DNA of 64,000 bases from TPA_inf: Saccharomyces (GCA_000146045.2 BK006934.2:64001-128000), one strand, 5' to 3'. Numbered from the stretch's first letter, positions 2,604 to 52,752 are shown. Program-made: numbers and translations. The notes: generated from the sequence alone by a model not told the origin.

Positions 2604-3456
2604 CCACTTTTTGTTCTTCACAGTTGGCATAATGAAACGAAGCATGATGCGGCAGTGATGTACTGTGGACGCTGTCGAACCAATTTGTGGGTAAGTTTAG
2701 AAGACTTTCCCGAACCTGAGATCTTGCGGGCTCCGGCAGCGAATTTGCTGTGAACTTCGATATCAGCGAGTAGACTTTCTTGACTGTGCCGACCACCTCC
2801 ATTTTCACCACAATAGACTGCTCGCTGGCGTTGACCTGCTCTGAGGCATCAAAAAACTCCTCATCGTCGTCGTCTTCGTCTGACGATGTCTCGTCCTCGC
2901 CAGCTCCAGTGGTCGTCCTAGCATTTCCATCTTGCTTGTGCAAAGGATGCACCTGCTCCTTTTCAACAAGGTCCTGTAAACACGAGATTTTATCGGAAAG
3001 CTGCTTATTGGCCAGCTTTAAAAGATGCAAGCACGTTACAAGCCTCTTCTTAGACTCGATGGACATGTTCAGCTTGTACTCTTTCAAGTTGTCCTTCCCC
3101 TTGGCAATCGCCCGCGACAGCTTCTGTCTCTTGTTGGTGAAGAACTCATCGTCGTTGTAGTCGTAATCATCATGCTCGTCATCGTCATCGTCTAGCAGCC
3201 TCCCTATTGATTTCAGTGGCCTCTTGTTGGTGTTTATTTCATCGTAGAATGTCACTACGTTACTGATAATTTTGTTACTTACGCGATCCAAAATGTTTAG
3301 CGGCGTCGTAGACGACTCACTTGCCGGCATTTTGTCAGCTTGTGAGACGTCCTCTGAAGGCTGCGACTTCTGTCTGCATGATTGTTTCAACACCCCAAGT
3401 ACTTCAGCCGCTTCTACCTCTTCCTCTGATAATCCTAAACGTTGATTTTCAGACAT
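2242..3456 (-). CDS. OPI1: OPI1 (YHL020C), transcriptional repressor of phospholipid biosynthesis genes, 404 aa
   Basis: ORF 2242..3459 starts MMSENQRLGLSEEEVEAAEV; I place the start at the second Met to give the 404-aa length I recall for Opi1. Contains the Opi1 glutamine tracts (Q12, LLQQQLLQQQQQ) and a leucine-zipper region. Confidence 0.88.
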
Positions 3457-3640
3457 CAATGACTAGTATCTTCGTTAAAAACACTGTCCTGATACACACG
3501 CTTTAATCAGCACTGTAAACAAAATGCCACGTTCTGGCCTGATATGCTTTCTTGGCTAAGTGCAGATCGCTGTCTTGCTCCAATCCTCTTATTAATCCCT
3601 CTCATTGAGGTGGAAAAAAAAAAAATAAGAACGCCCGATT

Positions 3641-3648
3641 TTACCCGG
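3641..3648. promoter_or_regulatory. Exact Reb1 consensus site TTACCCGG, about 185 bp upstream of the OPI1 ATG
   Basis: Direct read ttacccgg; Reb1 consensus is TTACCCGG; position suits a nucleosome-free promoter element for OPI1. Confidence 0.45.
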
Positions 3649-3730
3649 TTGCATATGAAGATTATAAGGTGCCATCTATATACTAAAACGAACGTACCAT
3701 TTGTCTATCTATGAGATGTCTGCGTAAGCG

Positions 3731-5548
3731 TCAAACAATATATGCGTACTCTTCGTCGCTGACGGTCTTGTATCTGACCCAGGGGAAAGACTGGTACTGC
3801 AATTGTGGCTCTTCGACCTTCAAGTACTCAACTTTCAGGCCACTGCATGTACAGTACGGAATCTCGAAATCAATGTTGACCAACTTATCTCGAGGAGTAA
3901 CGTGGGAAGTTTGTTGGTCGTGCACTTGTCTATATAGTTCTTCCAGCCTGGGTCCCGTGCGCAAGGGCGGCGGATTCATTGAGGTTTTCATTTCTTCTTG
4001 CAGGCGGTCATATTCTTCCTGGTTGAAGAGGGGGAACTCTGCCACCATGGATGCACACGTATTTGGATCATCTTCGTCGCTGTTGTACTGTGAGCTCTTG
4101 TTTGTGCTATGTTCTCGGTGCCCCTTCATGGTTTGTATCTCCCAGAGGAGAAAATCGTCACTCAAGTTAAACACGACCTTGCCGATGTTTGCCTTGAATC
4201 TAATTTGCTTGCTGAGGTCTATTTTATATTCCTGGAAGACTTTTGTCAGGGGAATTCTCACGTTTAGCTTCGACGTTGAGTTGGTGGGTTTAAAATTTGT
4301 TTGAATTTTGGTTACAATTTGGATTTTAAACTTCTTCAGTTTAGGTTTGATTTCAAAATCTTTCAACCTCACCATCGGCGCATCCTTTACATGTCTCTTC
4401 AACTCGTATTGGCAAAGAACAAATTCGCCATCCGGCGGTATAAATTCGATTTCTCTTGCATCTGTGGCGGCCTGCAAACCAGCATCATCGTCACTATTCT
4501 TTTCTTCATCTTTTTCAATAGTGTTTATGGAATCTAGTGAAACACACTGATGAAAGCTGGAATTCGACATGAACTGGGGGTCCCTGTTCAGTATCTTGTT
4601 TATGGATATTTTCAGTTTGGGCATCCCTGATAAATAGCATCTGCACACAATCTCTCCATGTATCAGATTTTTCCTAATCACTCCTTTTTCAAAATCCATC
4701 AAGTACTGAACACGTTCAATAACATCAAGAAAGAACTCGTTTTTGGCGTAATGTATCCCCTTTGTTCTCCATGATATGGGCATTATAATCGTCTTCGCAA
4801 TATCGCCATTGATGTATAAATCATTACCGTCATTGGGGAGCTCGTCATTAGCGGCTTCTTTACCGGTATCATTCTTGTTCCTTAGTGTCTCCTTGACAGT
4901 TTCCACCACGTTTATGCCCCTATTTTCTTTATTGTTTACCATTATACTTTTTAATTTACTTTTGCCCACGCTTTTCCCTTTAGTGCCCTTTTTCTTCTTC
5001 CTTTTCTTCTTCTTATCCTTCCTCTTATTAGTATTGCTGTACTCGCTATCGCTATCGCTACCGCTACTACTACTGCTCTCTTCACCAGGGCTCCACTCCT
5101 CATTGTCTACTGTAACTCTTGGTACGTTGACCTTCACACGAATGTAGTCCTTGATGATACTTGGATCCGTCACTTGTACGATACCAAAGTCTATACATTC
5201 ATCAATCAACTCCAGGACAAGTAAGATGTTGTCCAGTATGACATTCTTAGTTAAGACCTCGATTTCAAAATATTTTTGTAAAAGATGATAAAATTGTTCC
5301 AAAAAGGCTAGTATAGTCATTAAGTCTATATTTGGTTTGTCTGTGGTATGTATCACTGAAACGAAATGCAGAAAGTCTCTCTTCAAATGTATAAAGAACC
5401 AATCGTTTTGGGAGAGAATTGGAGGCGACCCGTCATGATAACATTGTTTGAAACTTGAAAGAACCGACGATAGATTCGGTAGTGCTCTAATATTCTTCGA
5501 TACCAATGGCTCCAGATTTTCATCCAGGATAAAAAGGCTTGACGACAT
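3731..5548 (-). CDS. APM2: APM2 (YHL019C), AP-1-related adaptor mu-subunit homologue, 605 aa
   Basis: Full 605-aa ORF; the N-terminus has mu/sigma longin-like features (MSSSLFILDENLEPLVSKN). A C-terminal mu-homology domain is interrupted by a Ser/Asp then Lys/Arg-rich insertion (SSSSSGSDSDSEYSNTNKRKDKKKKRKKKKGTKGK). Confidence 0.88.
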   Translation of the reverse strand: MSSSLFILDENLEPLVSKNIRALPNLSSVLSSFKQCYHDGSPPILSQNDWFFIHLKRDFLHFVSVIHTTDKPNIDLMTILAFLEQFYHLLQKYFEIEVLTKNVILDNILLVLELIDECIDFGIVQVTDPSIIKDYIRVKVNVPRVTVDNEEWSPGEESSSSSGSDSDSEYSNTNKRKDKKKKRKKKKGTKGKSVGKSKLKSIMVNNKENRGINVVETVKETLRNKNDTGKEAANDELPNDGNDLYINGDIAKTIIMPISWRTKGIHYAKNEFFLDVIERVQYLMDFEKGVIRKNLIHGEIVCRCYLSGMPKLKISINKILNRDPQFMSNSSFHQCVSLDSINTIEKDEEKNSDDDAGLQAATDAREIEFIPPDGEFVLCQYELKRHVKDAPMVRLKDFEIKPKLKKFKIQIVTKIQTNFKPTNSTSKLNVRIPLTKVFQEYKIDLSKQIRFKANIGKVVFNLSDDFLLWEIQTMKGHREHSTNKSSQYNSDEDDPNTCASMVAEFPLFNQEEYDRLQEEMKTSMNPPPLRTGPRLEELYRQVHDQQTSHVTPRDKLVNIDFEIPYCTCSGLKVEYLKVEEPQLQYQSFPWVRYKTVSDEEYAYIV

Positions 5549-6275: not shown

Positions 6276-7874
6276 ATGGATAGAACGTGGCTATTACTGA
6301 CGTGGCTGTTGCTACTCTGTGGGGTAGTTCAAGGGAACCAAGAAAGCATAAATCAAAAATATCACGATGTCTGTTCAGGGATGTATTCCAAGGAGGATTT
6401 CAATGGAAAAGTTGACCCCTATATATCGTTTACGTTGGAGGAATTGTCACTTGCTGATGAAGACGATGATGGCGAGGGGGTTAGTGTTGCTGTGTTTGAT
6501 TTCCAAGATTATGAGCATATTGGTGTGCGGTTACCAAATGGAGAAATTCAGTATATTTGCGATGACTACGCATTGGATTTGGGCCTCTGTGAGGATTCGT
6601 CGGAGGGGCAATTTATCATTCAAGAGACAGCCATCGATCCGTTCACCAGTAAGGAACATAAGCTAACGAGTCAGATTTTGACTTTCACTCAACAAGAATT
6701 GGGCACTAACGACAAGGTATACTCAATTAACAAAACTGGTTACTATTGTGTGACCACGTCATCTTTCATTTCTTCCAGTTCCAAGTTTAAGGCTACAGTG
6801 AATTTTAGGAACGCTTACGGTCAATTGGACGCTTCAGAGGCGTACAAGATGCCTATTTATGCCTTTTTGGCCGTCGCTTATGCCGTCTGTACATTAGTGT
6901 ACTCTTGGCTATGCTGGAAGCATAGACATGAGTTACTGCCTTTACAAAGGTACATTTTGGTATTTTGTATTTTCCTAACAGCTGATACTATTTTCGTCTG
7001 GATGTACTATATTATTGAGAACCAGAAGGGAAACTCCAGCGTCGCTCTTCATGTCTATATGGTTTTCATATCGATCTTTAGCGCCGGTAAGATGACTTTC
7101 ACGCTTCTCCTCGCCTTGCTGATATCTCTTGGATATGGTATAGTATATCCAAAACTGGACCGTACATTGCTAAGAAGATGTCAAATATTTGCGATATTTA
7201 CGTTTGCAGTGTGCGTTGCATTCCTGGTCCAAAAATATTCCCAGAATTCTGAGTCTTTATCCAATTTGATTTTGATTACTGCTATCCCCTTAGTATTATG
7301 TCTATTCGCTTTCTATTATTTGACACTGTCTTCAATGAACAAAACAATGACTTATTTGAGGGAACAAAACCAAGTGGTGAAATTAAACATGTACAGAAAA
7401 CTGATCATATTGTGTTATATTTCGTTGTTTATACTCTTCTTAGGCTTACTAGTCTCTACTTTTGCATACGTCGGTATGGACACTGTTGACATGATAGAAC
7501 AATATTGGAAAACAGAATTCCTCATCACAGATACTTGGCCTAGTTTCGTTTACTTCTTGGTCTTCGTCATTTTCGCATTCTTCTGGAGACCTACAAGTAC
7601 ATCATATTTACTAGCGTGCTCGCATCAATTACCAACTGACATGGAAAATGTATCAGAATTCGATTTAGATGACATAAATTCCTTGTCTGATGAGGCATTG
7701 CCTAATAGAGAGCCACGTAATGACTACCAGGAACACGATCACAATATGGATATTGATTTAGCATCCGATTTTGAAGAAGTGCCAAGTGTAAATGCAAATA
7801 CGAACGCAAATAATGACGTATTGTTCGACGTAGATTACGACAGAGATGCAAAAAATGATAGAAGTACTACATAA
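6276..7874 (+). CDS. YHL017W, multi-pass membrane protein (Ptm1 paralogue), 532 aa
   Basis: Signal peptide ([20 protein letters not shown]), lumenal domain, then 7 predicted TM helices and an acidic C-terminal tail; length and position match YHL017W. Confidence 0.82.
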
Positions 7875-17963: not shown

Positions 17964-19721
17964 TCATTTCCCTGCTTTTTTATTTTTGTTGCGCTTCTTC
18001 TTGCTTTTGGATGCCTGTGCTGCCCCATGTGGTTGCTGTATTAGGATGGTACCTTCTTTTACACTCTCATCAGCGTCTTTGAATTTTTCTTGAGAATCTA
18101 GATAAAACATTAGGTCCTTGACTTGCTCTTCCAAATCTTGTTTAGACTCTTCTAACGCTTTGTTTTCTCGCTCTAACTGCTCTTGTTTTTTTGATAAGTG
18201 ATCTAGGTTCGCTTGTAGTCCTTCGATTACTAACATATCTTCCTCAAGCTTAGATTTCTGGGCCATTTCCCTTTTCTGCCACTCCTTTTGAGTGACCTGA
18301 AATTGGAGTTTCAAATCTTCCATAGACTTCTTCAAACTTTCAACATTCGAAGAATCAGACGCAGTTTGATCTTTTTCTTGTAATTTCAGTTCATAATATT
18401 CTCTTTGAGACTCTAATTGAGATATTAGGACTTGCACATATTCTAGATGATACTCCCTATGCCTTAAAAAATTTGCCGCCAGCTCGCCATCTTTTTTATT
18501 AGAGTTCGATTTCTCACCGTTTTTGCTCCTGTTCCCGTAAACAACATTTTGTAGTTCATCGGAGTTGCCTATATCATTGTTGTCATCGTCACCGGAGCCG
18601 CCGACCTCTACTAACTTCCCATCAACTTCATTTTGAACTAGGCGATGGACATAATTATCACCCGCATAATCCCACACTCTTTGTGTCCGTATATCCATCG
18701 CAAAACAATGTAAAGTTTCTTCATAATGCTTGATTGCGTGTTTGGAATTGTAACGACCGCATCCAACATTACCGCAGATCAAGCAAATCCATAGATTATC
18801 AGTGGAACCACATGTTGCACAATGTGCGGAATCACCTGCCTGTTTCAATAATGATTCCCTGCTTAGCCGCAGACTTGAATGTCGACACACTGGACACCTT
18901 GAATTCTTCCACTTATTTAAGCATTGGCAATGAAAAGTGTGCTGGCACGGGATCGTTACTAATCCAGTAGTTTCTGAATCCATTCTTTCAAGGCAAACGG
19001 GACATGTGGGGAGTTCGACTTTTACCAGTTCCTTTTTTTTCTTAACAGTGAATGGATCAGTAAGCAGATAGGGGAAGTCCTCGTTAGCGGCTGGTCTTTG
19101 GAAGAGCTTTTTTTGAAAAACTATTTCTTTTACAGAGATCACATGGCATGTTTCGGGATCCATCCTGCTGAAACTTTTGCCATTGAACTCTTCCTTGAAA
19201 TTTTTCGCATCAAGTGCATTCCTGAATTTAATTAAGACCGTGAAATTAAAACCCATTCCCTTCTGCTGATTTCGTAATATACGAAAGTTTGAAACTTGCT
19301 TATTAACAATATCATCACCAATATAAAAATGCAATAAATCGTGAACGGTAAAATAAGTTGGAACAAACAGGATACATATCATAGTATCATCTCCCGGGAT
19401 AGTCAAAATCTCCTTCTCATTAAGAGTATTATTGGCATTGCTTAGCTTGAATAGCCTTATTATCCCATGGCCTAAGTATTGTGAAGTAATCAAATCACTT
19501 TCCTCTTCTTTTGATGTTTGATTTTTGAAATCAGTTATCATGTCTATTTCCAAGTCACAGACTCTCCAATCCTGCCAGTCTTGATTATTACTTTTAATAC
19601 TTTCTTCCCCGATACTTTTTGCCTTCAACTTTTTCGGAATACTCTTGAAAATTTGATAAGCGGATTCAACCTGATTTTGGTTTCCAAATTCTAAAGTAAT
19701 GATATACTCAAATTGATCCAT
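17964..19721 (-). CDS. ETP1: ETP1 (YHL010C), BRAP2-like protein: RING-H2 finger, ZnF-UBP domain and C-terminal coiled coil, about 585 aa
   Basis: RING (CPVCLERMD...[22 protein letters not shown]) followed by a UBP-type zinc finger ([24 protein letters not shown]...H) and a long coiled coil. I take the start at the second Met (MDQFEYI). Confidence 0.82.
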
Positions 19722-21060: not shown

Positions 21061-21297
21061 AACAATTGCTTCAGCCTTATTCTTCGTTAGTTTATACTGG
21101 AAGTAAAGCAAACACCTACTGCCCCTTTTATCGAAATGATAAACAAATAAGAAAGCTCAGAGGGCCTCCGGTAATATTCAAATCGATCTGTTTTATAATG
21201 CTTATTGAATAATAATGCCGTTGCTGTACTCTTAACATAAAGCTACGAAAATCCACTATACATTTTTCTAAAGAAAAAAAAAAAATTCAAAAAAAAT

Positions 21298-21371
21298 TGA
21301 TTTCGCCCAGGATCGAACTGGGGACGTTCTGCGTGTTAAGCAGATGCCATAACCGACTAGACCACGAAACC
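21298..21371 (-). tRNA. tV(AAC): tRNA-Val (anticodon AAC), 74 nt, intronless
   Basis: Minus-strand read GGTTTCGTGGTCTAGTCGGTTATGGCATCTGCTTAACACGCAGAACGTCCCCAGTTCGATCCTGGGCGAAATCA folds as a cloverleaf (D-loop AGTCGGTTA, anticodon loop TTAACAC, T-arm GTTCGATCC); internal A/B boxes present. Confidence 0.9.
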
Positions 21372-21387
21372 AAATTCTTATTGATTA

Positions 21388-21451
21388 TGTTGTATTACGG
21401 GCTCGAGTAATACCGGAGTGTCTTGACAATCCTAATACAAACAGTCTTAGG
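21388..21451. mobile_element. Possible internally deleted sigma (Ty3 LTR)-like relic beginning 17 bp upstream of the tRNA-Val 5' end
   Basis: Starts TGTTGTAT (the sigma terminal octamer) exactly 16 nt from the tRNA 5' end, which is the Ty3 integration window. A roughly 64-bp stretch ends in an imperfect inverted copy, AATACAAACA. The internal sequence does not match my memory of sigma, so this is tentative. Confidence 0.3.
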
Positions 21452-21538
21452 GAAGTAACCAGTTGTCAAAACAGTTTATCAGATTAATTCACGGAATGTT
21501 ACTTATCTTATATATATTATATAAAATATGAATCATAC

Positions 21539-21909
21539 TGTTGGAACGAGAGTAATTGATAGTGACATGAGTTGCTATGGTAACAATCTAATGCTTACAT
21601 CGTATATTAATGTACAACTCGTATACGTTTAAGTGTGATTGCGCCTATTGCAGAAGGAATGTTAAACGAGAAGCTCAGACAATACTGAAGCGGTGTTAAA
21701 GACCTATTAGTTGAACATGTTATGGTAGGTACATATATGAGGAATATGAGTCGTCACATCAATGTATAGTAACTACCGGAATCACTATTATATTGGTCAT
21801 AATTAATATGACCAATCGGCGTGTGTTTTATATACCTCTCTTATTTAGTATAAGAAGATCAGTACTCACTTCTTCATTAATACTAATTTTTTACCTCTAA
21901 TTATCAACA
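21539..21909 (+). repeat. Ty4 5' LTR (tau), 371 bp
   Basis: TGTTG...CAACA termini; 366/371 identical to the 3' LTR. Confidence 0.92.
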
Positions 21910-23150
21910 TGGCGACCCCAGTGAGGGATGAAACAAGAAATGTTATTGACGACAACATTTCTGCGCGGATTCAATCGAAAGTCAAAACAAATGATACTGT
22001 CAGACAGACGCCATCATCATTAAGAAAAGTTTCTATTAAAGATGAACAGGTGAAACAATATCAAAGAAACTTAAATAGGTTTAAAACCATACTAAATGGT
22101 TTAAAGGCAGAAGAGGAAAAACTTTCTGAGACTGATGATATTCAGATGCTAGCTGAAAAATTATTAAAACTCGGAGAAACCATTGACAAGGTTGAGAATA
22201 GGATTGTGGATCTAGTTGAAAAGATACAATTATTGGAAACAAACGAGAACAATAATATATTACATGAACATATAGATGCTACAGGGACTTACTATTTATT
22301 CGATACGTTAACTTCAACCAACAAAAGATTCTACCCTAAGGATTGTGTTTTTGATTATAGGACTAATAATGTCGAGAACATTCCTATTCTCTTAAACAAT
22401 TTTAAAAAATTCATCAAGAAATATCAATTTGATGATGTCTTTGAAAATGATATCATAGAAATCGATCCTCGTGAAAATGAAATCTTGTGCAAGATAATCA
22501 AAGAAGGACTCGGTGAAAGTTTAGATATCATGAACACAAATACAACTGACATTTTTAGGATAATCGATGGTTTAAAAAACAAATATAGAAGTTTACATGG
22601 TAGAGATGTCAGAATTAGAGCCTGGGAAAAGGTTTTGGTTGATACAACATGTAGAAATTCCGCATTGTTAATGAATAAACTTCAAAAGTTGGTACTAATG
22701 GAAAAATGGATTTTTTCTAAATGCTGCCAAGATTGTCCTAATCTAAAGGATTACCTACAAGAAGCTATCATGGGAACCTTACATGAATCCTTAAGAAATT
22801 CTGTGAAACAACGTTTGTACAACATTCCACATAACGTAGGAATTAATCACGAAGAATTTCTAATCAATACTGTTATTGAAACAGTAATTGATTTGAGCCC
22901 AATTGCAGACGATCAAATAGAAAATAGCTGCATGTATTGCAAATCTGTTTTCCATTGCTCAATTAACTGCAAAAAGAAACCAAATAGGGAACTTAGGCCT
23001 GACTCGACCAATTTCTCAAAAACCTATTATCTACAAGGTGCACAGAGACAACAACAACTTAAGTCCAGTGCAAAACGAACAAAAGTCTTGGAACAAGACA
23101 CAAAAAAAGTCAAACAAAGTGTACAACAGCAAAAAACTGGTAATTATTGA
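21909..23150 (+). CDS. TYA: Ty4 TYA (Gag), 413 aa (YHL009W-A-like)
   Basis: ORF opens with the last A of the LTR (ATGGCGACC...); a C-terminal CCHC-like zinc-knuckle region (CMYCKSVFHCSINC). Confidence 0.88.
   Translation: MATPVRDETRNVIDDNISARIQSKVKTNDTVRQTPSSLRKVSIKDEQVKQYQRNLNRFKTILNGLKAEEEKLSETDDIQMLAEKLLKLGETIDKVENRIVDLVEKIQLLETNENNNILHEHIDATGTYYLFDTLTSTNKRFYPKDCVFDYRTNNVENIPILLNNFKKFIKKYQFDDVFENDIIEIDPRENEILCKIIKEGLGESLDIMNTNTTDIFRIIDGLKNKYRSLHGRDVRIRAWEKVLVDTTCRNSALLMNKLQKLVLMEKWIFSKCCQDCPNLKDYLQEAIMGTLHESLRNSVKQRLYNIPHNVGINHEEFLINTVIETVIDLSPIADDQIENSCMYCKSVFHCSINCKKKPNRELRPDSTNFSKTYYLQGAQRQQQLKSSAKRTKVLEQDTKKVKQSVQQQKTGNY
21910..21927 (+). other. Ty4 minus-strand primer-binding site TGGCGACCCCAGTGAGGG, complementary to the 3' 18 nt of tRNA-Asn(GUU) including CCA; it overlaps the TYA start codon
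   Basis: 18/18 match to the reverse complement of the tRNA-Asn 3' end ...CCCTCACTGGGGTCGCCA as I recall it; immediately 3' of the LTR. Confidence 0.75.
22992..22998 (+). promoter_or_regulatory. Programmed +1 ribosomal frameshift heptamer CTT-AGG-C linking TYA to TYB
   Basis: CTT AGG are in the TYA zero frame (codons L-R of ...NRELRPDS...) and GGC is in the +1 frame, which stays open to 27318. A fusion of 362 + 1440 = 1802 aa matches the Ty4 Gag-Pol size I recall. Same heptamer as Ty1/Ty2. Confidence 0.8.
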
Positions 23151-26100
23151 TACCGGTTCCGGCGTAAACATTACCAATGACAAAACCTTACTGCATAATT
23201 ACGAAGACAGTAATCGCAGTACACGATTTTTTGGTATTGGGAAAAACAGTTCAGTGTCTGTTAAAGGGTATGGCTATATAAAAATCAAGAATGGTCACAA
23301 CAATACTGACAATAAGTGTTTATTGACTTACTATGTACCGGAAGAAGAATCCACTATAATCAGCTGTTATGACTTAGCCAAGAAAACCAAAATGGTTTTA
23401 AGTCGAAAATATACCAGATTGGGAAACAAAATCATAAAAATTAAAACCAAGATAGTTAATGGTGTCATTCACGTAAAAATGAACGAGTTAATTGAACGTC
23501 CTTCCGATGATTCAAAAATAAATGCAATAAAACCTACTTCTTCTCCTGGATTTAAACTAAATAAAAGGTCTATTACCTTGGAAGATGCTCATAAAAGAAT
23601 GGGCCATACAGGAATTCAACAAATTGAAAATTCCATAAAACATAATCATTATGAAGAATCCCTTGACTTAATCAAAGAACCAAATGAATTTTGGTGTCAA
23701 ACCTGTAAAATCTCTAAAGCCACGAAAAGAAATCATTATACCGGGTCTATGAATAATCATAGTACTGATCATGAACCAGGATCATCATGGTGCATGGATA
23801 TATTTGGCCCTGTATCAAGTTCAAACGCGGACACTAAAAGGTACATGCTTATTATGGTGGATAACAACACGAGATATTGCATGACCTCCACACACTTCAA
23901 TAAGAATGCTGAAACTATTTTAGCTCAAATCAGAAAGAATATTCAGTACGTGGAAACACAATTTGACAGGAAAGTCAGAGAAATTAATTCAGACAGAGGT
24001 ACTGAATTCACAAATGATCAGATAGAAGAATATTTTATTTCAAAAGGAATACATCACATACTTACTTCTACACAAGATCATGCTGCTAATGGAAGAGCAG
24101 AAAGATACATCAGAACAATAGTAACTGATGCAACAACACTCCTAAGACAAAGTAACTTAAGAGTAAAATTTTGGGAATACGCAGTAACTTCTGCTACCAA
24201 TATAAGAAATTGCCTGGAACACAAAAGTACAGGTAAACTACCATTGAAGGCAATCTCACGTCAACCTGTTACAGTGAGATTAATGTCATTCTTACCATTT
24301 GGCGAAAAAGGAATAATTTGGAATCATAATCACAAAAAATTGAAACCATCTGGACTTCCTTCTATAATTCTATGCAAAGATCCAAATAGTTATGGATACA
24401 AATTCTTTATACCATCCAAAAATAAAATTGTCACATCTGATAATTATACAATTCCCAACTATACGATGGACGGTAGAGTAAGAAATACTCAGAATATTTA
24501 CAAGAGTCATCAATTCAGTTCACATAATGATAATGAAGAAGATCAAATCGAAACGGTCACAAACTTATGTGAAGCTTTGGAAAACTACGAAGATGATAAT
24601 AAACCAATTACTCGCCTGGAAGATTTGTTCACAGAGGAAGAGTTATCTCAAATAGACTCAAACGCAAAATACCCATCTCCTAGTAATAACCTAGAAGGGG
24701 ACTTGGATTACGTATTTTCTGATGTTGAGGAATCTGGAGATTATGACGTTGAATCTGAACTTTCAACGACAAATACTTCAATCTCAACTGATAAAAACAA
24801 AATTTTGTCAAACAAGGATTTTAATTCAGAACTTGCATCGACTGAAATATCCATCAGTGAAATCGATAAGAAAGGATTAATAAATACAAGTCATATTGAT
24901 GAAGATAAGTATGATGAAAAAGTCCACAGAATTCCATCGATTATACAAGAGAAACTGGTAGGAAGTAAAAATACTATTAAAATCAATGACGAAAACAGAA
25001 TCTCCGACAGAATTCGTAGTAAAAATATTGGGAGTATCTTAAACACTGGACTCAGTAGATGTGTAGATATCACCGATGAATCTATTACTAACAAAGATGA
25101 GTCAATGCACAACGCAAAACCCGAACTAATTCAGGAGCAGTTCAATAAAACAAATCATGAAACTTCGTTTCCTAAAGAAGGGAGCATTGGAACAAATGTA
25201 AAATTCCGAAATACAGACAATGAGATTTCTTTAAAAACAGGCGATACGAGTTTACCAATAAAAACTTTAGAAAGCATTAACAATCACCATAGTAATGATT
25301 ATTCCACAAACAAAGTTGAAAAGTTTGAGAAGGAAAATCATCATCCGCCCCCGATTGAGGACATTGTGGATATGAGTGATCAAACTGATATGGAATCAAA
25401 CTGTCAGGATGGTAATAACTTAAAAGAATTAAAAGTCACCGATAAAAATGTACCAACTGACAATGGAACAAATGTGTCACCAAGGTTGGAACAAAATATT
25501 GAAGCATCTGGATCACCAGTACAAACAGTTAATAAAAGTGCCTTCTTAAACAAAGAATTCAGTTCTTTGAACATGAAAAGAAAACGGAAAAGACACGATA
25601 AAAACAATAGTCTAACAAGCTATGAATTAGAAAGAGATAAGAAGCGTTCAAAAAGGAATCGAGTGAAATTAATTCCAGATAATATGGAAACAGTTTCAGC
25701 ACAAAAAATTAGAGCCATATATTATAATGAAGCTATTTCAAAAAATCCTGACCTCAAAGAAAAACATGAATACAAACAGGCATATCATAAAGAATTACAG
25801 AATTTAAAAGATATGAAGGTATTTGATGTCGATGTGAAGTACAGTAGATCAGAAATCCCTGATAATTTAATAGTACCCACCAACACGATATTCACAAAGA
25901 AAAGAAATGGGATTTATAAGGCTAGGATAGTCTGCAGAGGTGATACTCAGTCACCAGACACTTACAGTGTAATAACTACAGAATCTTTAAATCACAATCA
26001 TATTAAGATATTCTTAATGATTGCAAACAACAGAAATATGTTTATGAAGACCCTGGATATCAATCATGCATTCCTATATGCTAAATTGGAAGAAGAAATA

Positions 26101-27318
26101 TACATCCCACATCCGCATGATAGGAGATGTGTAGTCAAGCTAAATAAGGCGTTATATGGTCTAAAACAGAGTCCTAAAGAATGGAATGATCATCTAAGAC
26201 AATACTTGAATGGAATTGGACTGAAAGATAACTCTTATACTCCGGGATTATACCAAACCGAGGATAAAAATCTAATGATTGCAGTCTATGTTGATGACTG
26301 CGTAATTGCGGCAAGCAATGAACAGAGATTGGATGAATTCATAAACAAATTGAAAAGTAATTTTGAACTGAAAATTACAGGAACATTAATAGATGATGTA
26401 CTCGATACAGATATATTAGGAATGGATCTAGTATACAACAAAAGACTTGGTACTATCGATTTAACATTAAAATCATTCATAAATAGAATGGATAAAAAAT
26501 ACAACGAGGAATTGAAAAAGATTAGAAAAAGTTCAATTCCGCATATGTCAACTTATAAAATAGATCCTAAGAAAGACGTACTGCAAATGTCAGAAGAAGA
26601 GTTTAGACAAGGTGTTCTAAAGCTACAACAATTACTAGGTGAACTAAACTATGTCAGACACAAATGCAGATACGACATTAATTTTGCTGTTAAGAAAGTG
26701 GCTAGACTAGTAAATTACCCACATGAAAGAGTCTTTTATATGATTTACAAAATAATCCAGTACTTGGTTCGGTATAAAGATATTGGAATACACTATGACC
26801 GAGACTGTAATAAAGACAAGAAGGTTATTGCTATAACTGATGCATCAGTTGGATCAGAATATGATGCTCAATCAAGGATTGGAGTTATATTATGGTACGG
26901 TATGAATATTTTTAATGTTTATTCTAACAAGAGCACAAACAGATGTGTATCATCAACAGAAGCAGAGCTTCATGCCATTTATGAAGGCTATGCAGACTCA
27001 GAAACGTTGAAGGTAACATTAAAGGAGCTAGGAGAAGGAGACAATAATGACATTGTCATGATCACTGACTCAAAGCCAGCCATTCAAGGATTAAATCGCA
27101 GCTATCAACAACCAAAAGAGAAATTCACTTGGATAAAAACTGAAATAATAAAAGAAAAAATTAAAGAGAAGAGTATAAAACTGTTAAAAATTACCGGCAA
27201 AGGTAATATTGCTGATTTACTAACAAAACCAGTATCAGCATCTGATTTTAAAAGATTTATACAAGTATTAAAAAATAAAATAACATCACAGGATATTTTG
27301 GCCTCAACAGACTATTGA
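22996..27318 (+). CDS. TYB: Ty4 TYB (Pol), expressed as a TYA-TYB fusion after the +1 frameshift: protease, integrase, reverse transcriptase, RNase H
   Basis: Protease DTGS (VIIDTGSGVNI); integrase HHCC zinc finger and DDE core (HKRMGHTGIQ...CQTCKISKA; DIFGP...D...E); reverse-transcriptase YVDD box (MIAVYVDDCVIAAS); RNase H (ITDASVGS...). The track's 23038 start is a GTG-start artefact; the frame is open from 22996. Confidence 0.88.
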   Translation, partial: GLTRPISQKPIIYKVHRDNNNLSPVQNEQKSWNKTQKKSNKVYNSKKLVIIDTGSGVNITNDKTLLHNYEDSNRSTRFFGIGKNSSVSVKGYGYIKIKNGHNNTDNKCLLTYYVPEEESTIISCYDLAKKTKMVLSRKYTRLGNKIIKIKTKIVNGVIHVKMNELIERPSDDSKINAIKPTSSPGFKLNKRSITLEDAHKRMGHTGIQQIENSIKHNHYEESLDLIKEPNEFWCQTCKISKATKRNHYTGSMNNHSTDHEPGSSWCMDIFGPVSSSNADTKRYMLIMVDNNTRYCMTSTHFNKNAETILAQIRKNIQYVETQFDRKVREINSDRGTEFTNDQIEEYFISKGIHHILTSTQDHAANGRAERYIRTIVTDATTLLRQSNLRVKFWEYAVTSATNIRNCLEHKSTGKLPLKAISRQPVTVRLMSFLPFGEKGIIWNHNHKKLKPSGLPSIILCKDPNSYGYKFFIPSKNKIVTSDNYTIPNYTMDGRVRNTQNIYKSHQFSSHNDNEEDQIETVTNLCEALENYEDDNKPITRLEDLFTEEELSQIDSNAKYPSPSNNLEGDLDYVFSDVEESGDYDVESELSTTNTSISTDKNKILSNKDFNSELASTEISISEIDKKGLINTSHIDEDKYDEKVHRIPSIIQEKLVGSKNTIKINDENRISDRIRSKNIGSILNTGLSRCVDITDESITNKDESMHNAKPELIQEQFNKTNHETSFPKEGSIGTNVKFRNTDNEISLKTGDTSLPIKTLESINNHHSNDYSTNKVEKFEKENHHPPPIEDIVDMSDQTDMESNCQDGNNLKELKVTDKNVPTDNGTNVSPRLEQNIEASGSPVQTVNKSAFLNKEFSSLNMKRKRKRHDKNNSLTSYELERDKKRSKRNRVKLIPDNMETVSAQKIRAIYYNEAISKNPDLKEKHEYKQAYHKELQNLKDMKVFDVDVKYSRSEIPDNLIVPTNTIFTKKRNGIYKARIVCRGDTQSPDTYSVITTESLNHNHIKIFLMIANNRNMFMKTLDINHAFLYAKLEEEIYIPHPHDRRCVVKLNKALYGLKQSPKEWNDHLRQYLNGIGLKDNSYTPGLYQTEDKNLMIAVYVDDCVIAASNEQRLDEFINKLKSNFELKITGTLIDDVLDTDILGMDLVYNKRLGTIDLTLKSFINRMDKKYNEELKKIRKSSIPHMSTYKIDPKKDVLQMSEEEFRQGVLKLQQLLGELNYVRHKCRYDINFAVKKVARLVNYPHERVFYMIYKIIQYLVRYKDIGIHYDRDCNKDKKVIAITDASVGSEYDAQSRIGVILWYGMNIFNVYSNKSTNRCVSSTEAELHAIYEGYADSETLKVTLKELGEGDNNDIVMITDSKPAIQGLNRSYQQPKEKFTWIKTEIIKEKIKEKSIKLLKITGKGNIADLLTKPVSASDFKRFIQVLKNKITSQDILASTDY

Positions 27319-27390
27319 TAATTAATTAATGAAGTTCTAAACACACAATGAATATCTGTTGAAGTACAATAATATATCTTTAAGGGAGCA

Positions 27391-27761
27391 TGTTGGAACG
27401 AGAGTAATTAATAGTGACATGAGTTGCTATGGTAACAATCTAATGCTTACATCGTATATTAATGTACAACTCGTATACGTTTAAGTGTGATTGCGCCTAT
27501 TGCAGAAGGAATGTTAAACGAGAAGCTCAGACAATACTGAAGCTGTGTTAAAGACCTATTAGTTGAACATGATATGGTAGGTACATATATGAGGAATATG
27601 AGTCGTCACATCAATGTATAGTAACTACCGGAACCACTATTATATTGGTCATGATTAATATGACCAATCGGCGTGTGTTTTATATACCTCTCTTATTTAG
27701 TATAAGAAGATCAGTACTCACTTCTTCATTAATACTAATTTTTTACCTCTAATTATCAACA
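27391..27761 (+). repeat. Ty4 3' LTR (tau), 371 bp; a purine-rich tract AAGGGAG lies immediately upstream (polypurine-tract candidate, 27382..27388)
   Basis: Differs from the 5' LTR at 5 positions (about 1.35%). Confidence 0.92.
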
Positions 27762-27766
27762 CATAC

Positions 27767-28099
27767 TGTAGAGTGGGTGAATTTTGAGATAATTGTTGGG
27801 ATTCCATTTTTAGTAAGGCAATAATATTAGGTATGTAGAATATACTAGAAGTTCTCCTCGAGGATTTAGGAATCCATAAAAGGGAATCTGCAATTCTACA
27901 CAATTCTATAAATATTATTATCATCGTTTTATATGTTAATATTCATTGATCCTATTACATTATCAATCCTTGCGTTTCAGCTTCCACTAATTTAGATGAC
28001 TATTTCTCATCATTTGCGTCATCTTCTAACACCGTATATGATAATATACTAGTAACGTAAATACTAGTTAGTAGATGATAGTTGATTTTTATTCCAACA
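27767..28099 (-). mobile_element. Solo delta (Ty1/Ty2 LTR), inverted, directly abutting the Ty4 right-hand target-site duplication
   Basis: Reverse complement reads TGTTGGAATAAAAATCAACTATCATCTACTAACTAGTATTTACGTTACTAGTATATTATCATATACGGTGTTAGAAGATGACGCAAATGATGAGAAATAGTCATCTAAATTAGTGGAAGCTGAAACGCAAGGATTGATAATGTAATAGGATCAATGAATA..., which is a typical delta. No matching 5-bp flanks. Confidence 0.85.
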
Positions 28100-28110
28100 T
28101 ATATGATAGC

Positions 28111-28127
28111 TGATTTTTATTCCAACA
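28111..28127 (-). repeat. Orphan 17-bp duplicate of the delta terminus (TGATTTTTATTCCAACA) 11 bp beyond the solo delta
   Basis: Direct read: ...gttgatttttattccaaca tatatgatagc tgatttttattccaaca... Confidence 0.6.
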
Positions 28128-28626
28128 ATTTATACGCTTGGGTGGATATCTAGGCAAGAAGGGCCTTGTGTTTTCTCAATATTATGGTACATCACAAATA
28201 AAATTGAGCAGCGATATGTTCCGAACACATGCCGTTACCTGATGGAATGAGAAATAGGTCTATTCTATCGATCTTTATCTATATTACTGGTATATTATGA
28301 TGTATGACGTAAAAAGATGTAGCAAAGAATGGCAAAAGCTATCAAAAATTTAATGAAACCTAAAACGCAAGGATTGACAGTGATGTAATAATGAACGAGG
28401 GCATATTGAAGTTTAAGATTTAGTTTAGTGACACTGCTTAGGCAAAATACTATTCTAAAACAGATATGATTTTCGTTCACGATGCAAAAGGTTTATATAA
28501 GTTATTTAATAGTAAATAAAAAAACATGCAGACGCATAAGTCACCATTGACTCATGCTTATTATTATATCCAATGATTTATTTTTTTTTGTTTTCGTTGA
28601 TATCGCGGGCATCTTAACTCTTCTGG

Positions 28627-52106: not shown

Positions 52107-52179
52107 TGCTTCCAATCGGATTTGAACCGATGATCTCCACATTACTAGTGTGGCGCCTTACCAACTTGGCCATAGAAGC
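52107..52179 (-). tRNA. tT(AGU): tRNA-Thr (anticodon AGU), 73 nt, intronless
   Basis: Minus-strand read GCTTCTATGGCCAAGTTGGTAAGGCGCCACACTAGTAATGTGGAGATCATCGGTTCAAATCCGATTGGAAGCA; anticodon loop CTAGTAA; T-arm GGTTCAAATCC. Confidence 0.88.
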
Positions 52180-52420: not shown

Positions 52421-52752
52421 TGAGAAATGGGTGAATGTTGAGATAATTGTTGGGATTCCATTTTTGATAAAGGCTATAATATTAGGTATACAGAATATAC
52501 TAGAAGTTCTCCTCGAGGATATAGGAATCCTCAAAATGGAATCTATATTTCTATTTACTAATATCACGATTATTCCTCATTCCGTTTTATATGTTTCATT
52601 ATCCTATTACATTATCAATCCTTGCACTTCAGCTTCCTCTAACATCGATGACAGCTTCTCATAACTTATGTCATCATCTTAACACCGTATATGATAATAT
52701 ATTGATAATATAACTATTAGTTGATAGACGATAGTGGATTTTTATTCCAACA
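52421..52752 (-). mobile_element. Solo delta (Ty1/Ty2 LTR), 332 bp, flanked by a perfect 5-bp target-site duplication CTATT (52416..52420 and 52753..52757); about 240 bp upstream of tRNA-Thr
   Basis: Plus strand starts TGAGAAATGGGTGAATGTTGAGATAATTGTTGGGATTCC and ends ...GTGGATTTTTATTCCAACA, which are the canonical delta termini reversed. Identical CTATT flanks read directly. Confidence 0.88.

Follow-up and report, generated by a model that had tools for sequence, protein, structure and literature searches.

YHLWTy4-1, a structurally intact Ty4 element of Saccharomyces cerevisiae chromosome VIII, as a likely chimera of two tau lineages

A retrotransposon whose reading frames are intact and whose two long terminal repeats (LTRs) have diverged raises the question of what that divergence records: the age of the insertion, selection on the coding sequence, or exchange with other copies. 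Such an element lies at positions 21539..27761 of the window analysed here, the whole 64,000-nucleotide stretch of one strand of Saccharomyces DNA (GCA_000146045.2 BK006934.2:64001-128000), from whose first letter all positions are counted. Judging from its sequence, it is almost certainly YHLWTy4-1 (genes YHL009W-A / YHL009W-B), an annotated Ty4 on chromosome VIII (chrVIII) of S. cerevisiae S288C. In a protein look-up, the TYA product agreed in every residue with NP_058134.1, "Transposon Ty4-H Gag" (YHL009W-A), and the frameshift-joined Gag-Pol of 1802 amino acids (aa) was letter-for-letter NP_058133.1 / UniProt P0C2J7, "Transposon Ty4-H Gag-Pol polyprotein". The six large flanking open reading frames (ORFs) that were checked gave exact S288C matches to STE20, YHL008C, YAP3, PRS3 and LAG1. 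The element is thus already known, its reference annotation dating back to the completion of the genome, and the primer-binding site (PBS), frameshift and domain layout of Ty4 were covered by the literature of the early 1990s.

YHLWTy4-1 is listed at chrVIII 85535-91757 (+) as a full-length member of an 'active' clade, with YHLCsigma1 at 85384-85534 and YHLCdelta1 at 91773-92095 as its neighbours (Carr et al. 2012, PMC3511429, Files S2/S3); window positions equal chrVIII positions (sacCer2) minus 63,996. Both LTR sequences are identical to the chrVIII_u17 TY4 LTR entries in File S6 of that study and are hence tau LTRs, which, with the exact matches to the reference Gag and Gag-Pol, places the element in the Ty4 family. 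That this is a low-copy family, as originally predicted, agrees with the three full-length copies in the S288C reference (PMC3511429) and with a Gag annotated at only 226 aa in the copy on chromosome X (chrX).

Origin of the divergence between the two LTRs

The 5' LTR (21539..21909, +, TGTTGG...TCAACA) and the 3' LTR (27391..27761, +, TG...CA) are each 371 bp long and differ at exactly five positions, namely LTR positions 20, 154, 182, 244 and 263. The element is bounded by a 5-bp target-site duplication (TSD), CATAC, at 21534..21538 and 27762..27766 (both +), a match with a probability by chance of about 1/1024. Direct sequence comparison thereby bore out the repeat length, the 5/371 differences and the TSD of the original prediction. 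The same prediction had gone on to conclude from the differences that the insertion is not very recent, and this conclusion fails when the LTRs are scored against other Ty4 copies: all five changes lie in the 5' LTR, and the 1.35% divergence is not a clock.

The comparison that carries this result is with YPLCTy4-1 on chromosome XVI (chrXVI), which is of the same length class and has two LTRs identical to the chrVIII 3' LTR. Its internal sequence was taken from another strain's assembly (L002, GCA_002571405.2). Five substitutions separate YHLWTy4-1 from that copy, each of them within the 5' LTR, and zero fall in the other 5,852 bp (Fisher's exact P = 7e-7), of which 5,481 bp are internal; at the rate of the 5' LTR, about 79 substitutions would be expected there. 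The only other difference is a single 1-nt indel in an A-run at window position 25193. Over this stretch of 5.5 kb, 1-22 substitutions separate the chrVIII copy from typical Ty4 contigs of other samples. YPLCTy4-1 differs from YHLWTy4-1 in that its own two LTRs are identical, that its TSD is TTGAT and that it lies upstream of a tRNA-Cys gene.

Within S288C, the alignments of Carr et al. show that the chrVIII 3' LTR is identical to both the 5' and the 3' LTR of the chrXVI copy. In the same alignments the chrX copy, YJLWTy4-1, has one and the same sequence in its two LTRs, which three solo LTRs share; the annotated gag of this copy appears truncated. The chrVIII 5' LTR shares T182, T244 and A263 with the chrX group. 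It differs from that group in carrying the private states G20 and G154, where the chrX group has A20 and T154, and in carrying T354 as in the chrXVI type, where the chrX group has A354. The derived A263 is limited to the chrX group and the chrVIII 5' LTR, and C244 is limited to the chrXVI type. We read the two LTRs of YHLWTy4-1 as members of different tau sublineages.

That the element is simply one insertion of modest age, whose five differences arose by point mutation since integration, is very unlikely. Five differences in 371 bp would give a naive clock of K = 0.0136, or about 2-4 x 10^7 generations, and G20 and G154, being private to the 5' LTR, look like ordinary mutations. However, the same rate predicts the roughly 79 substitutions against the chrXVI copy that are not seen, and three of the 5' LTR states are those of the chrX group while all five 3' LTR states are those of the chrXVI type, so that a history of point mutation alone would have to include parallel changes or reversions at positions already variable in the family. 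The insertion is also at low frequency, being present in 3/24 scorable SGRP strains (Carr et al. 2012, PMC3511429), and is missing from diverse long-read assemblies. Purifying selection, which had been offered beside modest age and gene conversion to reconcile intact ORFs with diverged LTRs, cannot explain the internal identity since there are zero synonymous differences; of the three options gene conversion fits best, and the other two are not upheld.

Since reverse transcription copies both LTRs from one template, LTRs of different sublineages need an exchange after integration. Candidate exchanges are gene conversion, recombination of cDNA with a resident LTR or element, and conversion of one LTR. 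We therefore consider YHLWTy4-1 most likely to be a chimera of two tau lineages formed by inter-element exchange. The version ranked first is that a cDNA or ectopic copy of the chrXVI type replaced the sequence of an older resident tau or Ty4 of the chrX type, beginning within the 5' LTR of the resident and running to its 3' end, and this we judge to be probable; the identical LTRs of the chrXVI-type lineage indicate that it has been recently mobile. In the Ty4 family, the copies present in one strain have been described as undergoing gene conversion and concerted evolution (Chen et al. 2025, PMC11739139).

Ranked second, ahead of simple age, and on our assessment unlikely, is that YPLCTy4-1 descends from YHLWTy4-1 as a transpositionally active parent. 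A daughter element takes its U3 (unique 3') region from the parental 3' LTR and its R (repeat) and U5 (unique 5') regions from the 5' end of the RNA, so that both chrXVI LTRs would equal the chrVIII 3' LTR and the internal regions would be alike, as is the case, with zero internal substitutions and with a TSD of its own on chrXVI. The only consensus TATA in the 5' LTR (TATATA) is at LTR position 291, and all five variable sites lie upstream of it and so probably in U3; the ORFs and cis signals of the supposed parent are intact. Yet the model leaves unexplained why the parental LTRs are of different tau sublineages, and an extra conversion of one LTR would still be required. The same pattern would be expected if the chrXVI-type lineage were the donor, the U3/R boundary is a putative one, and Ty4 transposition has not been observed according to Carr et al. 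2012 (PMC3511429). Whether a resident element was overwritten or YHLWTy4-1 was the parent, both readings alike imply very recent Ty4 mobilisation or conversion in the S288C/CEN.PK lineage.

Several points weigh against the preferred reading of an overwritten resident. The Hudson-Kaplan RM statistic gave no signal of recombination among Ty4 LTRs (Carr et al. 2012, PMC3511429). The internal comparison with chrXVI comes from the strain of L002, in which the A-run indel could be an assembly error, and S288C's own chrXVI copy, with the same LTRs, has a slightly different internal RepeatMasker score (47365 vs 47431) and is thus unlikely to be identical throughout. For tau, the U3/R boundary is placed from a single TATA, and the chrVIII/chrXVI exchange may have gone in either direction. 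Finally, a true empty site, which would be a junction of the neighbouring sigma and delta LTRs with a single CATAC, was not found in the other-strain assemblies examined, including ten that have no tau, sigma or delta at the site.

Coding capacity, cis signals and competence

Read from its sequence, YHLWTy4-1 is a structurally intact LTR retrotransposon of the Ty1/copia type (Pseudoviridae). The TYA (gag) ORF (21909..23150, +) encodes 413 aa plus a stop, its ATG beginning on the last base of the LTR, and includes a zinc knuckle of the form CX2CX4HX4C, CMYCKSVFHCSINC, at 22929..22970 (+; aa 341-354). TYB (pol) lies in the +1 frame, open from 22921 and read after the shift at 22996..27318 (+), and overlaps TYA by 230 nt. 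The heptamer CTT-AGG-C at 22992..22998 (+) is in TYA frame 0 and inside this overlap, where an in-frame CTTAGGC among the 76 overlap codons has a chance probability of about 0.005. Joining 21909-22994 to 22996-27318 gives the Gag-Pol of 1802 aa with zero internal stops. A +1 frameshift at CUU-AGG-C is thus the predicted link of gag to pol, and the joined product is the RefSeq fusion protein. Ty1 uses the same heptamer. For Ty1-Ty4, +1 frameshifting has been described (PMC2790909, PMC7175516). Over the whole window CTTAGGC occurs five times vs about eight expected by chance, the remaining sites being at 7439 and 28437 and, on the minus strand, at 19470 and 44032.

The polyprotein has the order protease, integrase, reverse transcriptase, RNase H, with integrase ahead of reverse transcriptase as in Ty1/copia elements (Pseudoviridae), and it carries the catalytic residues of that family in protease (D-T/S-G), integrase (HHCC and D,D35E), reverse transcriptase (YxDD) and RNase H (DEDD). 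The protease region (23143..23385, +) corresponds to the Pfam match Pol_BBD at aa 412-492 and has its active-site DTGS at aa 414 (23149-23160). The integrase (23590..24102, +) comprises the HHCC motif at aa 561-599 (23590-23706) and the residues D630, D695 and E731 with D-35-E spacing, the rve match covering aa 621-722 (23770-24075); an SH3_retrovirus match follows at aa 793-847. The reverse transcriptase (25870..26505, +) is matched by RVT_2 at aa 1321-1532, with YVDD at aa 1460 (26287-26298). All four of these matches are above the Pfam thresholds.

The RNase H region (26818..27228, +; aa 1643-1773) is assigned from the motifs TDAS, TEAE, TDSK and ADLLTK and from its place in the polyprotein. 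Counting against this part of the reading, the Pfam RNase_H match is below threshold (21.3 bits vs 25.8, E = 3.4e-4). A sequence search of the PDB with the reverse transcriptase-RNase H region gave zero matches, and for Gag none of the Pfam families gave a significant score. On careful re-translation no stop or frameshift appeared, so that the uninterrupted TYA and TYB, the position of the heptamer and the length of Gag-Pol, together with the full set of catalytic motifs (DTGS, HHCC plus DDE, YVDD and the RNase H residues), all stand as originally predicted, as does the broader description of a structurally intact Ty4 with each of its parts where it had been placed.

The PBS, TGGCGACCCCAGTGAGGG at 21910..21927 (+), had been predicted to pair with the 3' end of tRNA-Asn, and a failure to pair with the actual tRNA had been named beforehand as grounds for rejecting this. 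The tRNA-Asn gene is absent from the window, whose only tRNA genes are tRNA-Val(AAC) and tRNA-Thr(AGT). Metagenome contigs were therefore scanned with the 15-mer CCCTCACTGGGGTCG, and the matches were run through ARAGORN. Four contigs bear tRNA-Asn(GTT) genes, with the sequence GACTCCATGG...GTTCAACCCTCACTGGGGTCG, whose end coincides exactly with the 15-mer match, and the ORFs beside these genes are exact S. cerevisiae RPC34, ATO2 and MEP3. The last 15 nt of the tRNA, followed by CCA, form a sequence of which the PBS is the exact reverse complement, and pairing ends at position 18 with an A:A mismatch at position 19. The pairing with the 3' end of tRNA-Asn(GUU), checked against the four S. cerevisiae genes with CCA added, is accordingly 18/18, and the prediction survives.

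The PBS lies wholly within the first seven Gag codons, 21909-21929 (ATG GCG ACC CCA GTG AGG GAT = MATPVRD), of which the ATG straddles the LTR boundary. The N-terminus of Gag would hence be fixed by complementarity to the tRNA. A polypurine stretch ahead of the 3' LTR is likewise real, though short: AAGGGAGCA at 27382..27390 (+), which adjoins the 3' LTR, is 9 nt long and consists of seven purines followed by CA.

The sole non-trivial relative in the protein search was a cluster at 66% identity, with S. eubayanus as the source of its named members, that is, the Tsu4 subfamily (S. uvarum / S. eubayanus), which has the same architecture as Ty4 but differs in having only 66% identity in the Pol protein and another LTR sequence. 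In three Tsu4-type elements the 18-nt PBS is identical (18/18) and is preceded by ...TTATCAACA, gag frame 0 contains CTTAGGC, and the final ~45 nt ahead of the 3' LTR nearly match those of YHLWTy4-1, ending in AAGGGGGCA where the latter has AAGGGAGCA. That such short non-coding signals are kept at 66% protein identity argues that the PBS, the heptamer and the purine tract are functional. The arrangement of the PBS within the start of Gag is also kept in these elements.

Ty1 and Ty2 share with Ty4 the copia-type domain order, the 5-bp TSD and insertion upstream of genes that RNA polymerase III (Pol III) transcribes. Ty1 is primed by initiator tRNA-Met through a PBS of 10 nt. Ty4 is unlike Ty1/Ty2 in its tRNA-Asn primer and 18-nt PBS, in having a tau LTR of 371 bp instead of delta, and in a Gag that has no Pfam match.

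By analogy with Ty1, the life cycle of YHLWTy4-1 may be proposed as follows. RNA polymerase II would transcribe the element from the 5' LTR, with a start probably past LTR position 300 given that the only TATA is at 291. Translation would yield mostly Gag, with an occasional +1 slip on CUU, as the rare AGG codon stalls the ribosome, giving Gag-Pol. The minus strand would be primed by tRNA-Asn and the plus strand by the purine tract, and integrase would insert the cDNA near Pol III genes with a 5-bp duplication.

Retrotransposition competence of YHLWTy4-1 is plausible. A like internal sequence is found on chrXVI between identical LTRs and with the clean TSD TTGAT, the mark of a recent insertion by integrase. 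In TYB, the ratio of non-synonymous to synonymous polymorphism (pN/pS) was 0.40 (P = 0.006) across Ty4 contigs from eight other samples, which indicates that pol has been under purifying selection. A recently active Ty4 clade has been proposed from 16 insertions and a negative Tajima's D (Carr et al. 2012, PMC3511429), and strain-specific Ty4 insertions have been reported (PMC4022208).

The contrary view, that the copy is structurally intact yet functionally inert and persists because it is young or recently homogenised, with weak transcription and 3' ends upstream of the 3' LTR, is a possibility that we hold to be real if not favoured. Gag, matching no Pfam family, offers no independent check on its function. 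The title of the 1996 paper by Hug and Feldmann says that most of the rare Ty4 transcripts are without the 3' U3-R needed for reverse transcription. As that paper is cited by Carr et al. 2012 (PMC3511429), there are few Ty4 transcripts, the majority of them without U3-R, and transposition has not been observed, which speaks against competence. An inert copy is hard to square with the chrXVI insertion, with the selection on pol, and with the active clade and strain-specific insertions just mentioned.

Among other-strain Ty4 copies, the non-synonymous variants cluster in the long, low-complexity linker between integrase and reverse transcriptase (element 3300-4200, window ~24840-25740), and the catalytic domains show mostly synonymous changes.

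The tRNA-Val locus

YHLWTy4-1 belongs to a cluster of LTRs upstream of a tRNA-Val(AAC) gene (21298..21371, -), from whose 5' end it is 167 bp away. Ty1, Ty2 and Ty4 prefer to insert upstream of Pol III genes, within roughly 1 kb of them (PMC5911963), and both the CATAC duplication and the distance from tRNA-Val conform to this pattern. In a local Rfam scan the tRNA-Val(AAC) gene scored 53 bits vs a 29-bit threshold. The whole-window gathering scan reported tRNA-Thr alone, and the omission of tRNA-Val is probably a loss to the speed filter and no biological oddity.

Between the tRNA gene and the element lies a truncated sigma, a Ty3 solo LTR (YHLCsigma1; 21388..21538, -), of 151 bp and about 17 bp upstream of tRNA-Val. 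The left CATAC lies in sigma sequence, the target being the last 5 bp of the sigma remnant. To the right of the element, after the second CATAC, is an inverted delta solo LTR (YHLCdelta1; 27777..28099, -); both solo LTRs are seen in the sequence and are annotated (PMC3511429). Since the left TSD is the end of sigma and the right TSD is followed by the inverted delta, Ty4 entered a pre-existing sigma/delta junction. About 190 bp of sigma are missing, and a 28-bp fragment of a delta end follows the delta at 28100-28127 (regions examined, 21388-21538 and 27767-28127). The arrangement points to an earlier Ty1/Ty2 insertion and deletion at the tRNA-Val hotspot, predating the arrival of Ty4.

Other strains were surveyed at the same locus. 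Ten assemblies (L140-L149), found via the exact PRS3 protein, have about 168 bp of unrelated sequence in place of sigma-Ty4-delta, and their YHL008C encodes 632 aa vs 627 aa in S288C. Delta-flanked insertions of the Ty1/Ty2 type are nearby in three of the ten: the long-read assemblies L141, L142 and L145 carry an element of ~5.9 kb near the same tRNA-Val, at the equivalent of ~28100-28230, which suggests independent reuse of the hotspot. On either side of the repeat cluster, unique intergenic DNA differs by about 3% between S288C and the ten assemblies, with 6/331 mismatches on the left (21061-21391) and ~14/502 on the right (28128-28626), and the S288C haplotype looks unusually divergent at this locus.

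Among assemblies with the S288C YAP3 allele, Ty4 is present in L012 and L015, and L011, L014 and L016 have ambiguous, possibly collapsed versions. The 'solo' tau of L014, a 5'/3' recombinant haplotype, was not accepted as decisive for a pre-existing resident LTR, nor was the solo-LTR allele of L011, which has N gaps, or the mosaic tau haplotype of L016, which also has N gaps and looks like several LTR copies collapsed in the assembly. L013 (GCA_032144715.1, CP134974.1) has a clean deletion equivalent to 21298-28390, by which tRNA-Val and all LTRs between YAP3 and YHL008C are gone; it looks like an engineered synthetic chromosome VIII and was set aside.

The window holds a second Pol III hotspot at the tRNA-Thr(AGT) gene (52107-52179), where a delta-like fragment lies about 280 bp off (52462-52574) and is 81% identical to the delta adjacent to Ty4 (27807-27919).

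Implications for the Ty4 family

What is added to the known description of YHLWTy4-1 is evidence that the reference copy is a chimera of two lineages with an internal sequence common to YPLCTy4-1. Gene conversion in the Ty4 family has itself already been described (PMC11739139), and the case of this particular copy may not have been spelled out before. The ORF-intact internal sequence common to the chrVIII and chrXVI copies is a sensible template for a marked Ty4.

Because exchange between copies has most likely decoupled its two LTRs, the divergence between them is unsuitable for dating YHLWTy4-1 and, by extension, other Ty4 copies. If the element is a chimera, or if it is the parent of the chrXVI copy, LTR-LTR dating would fail for the Ty4 family.

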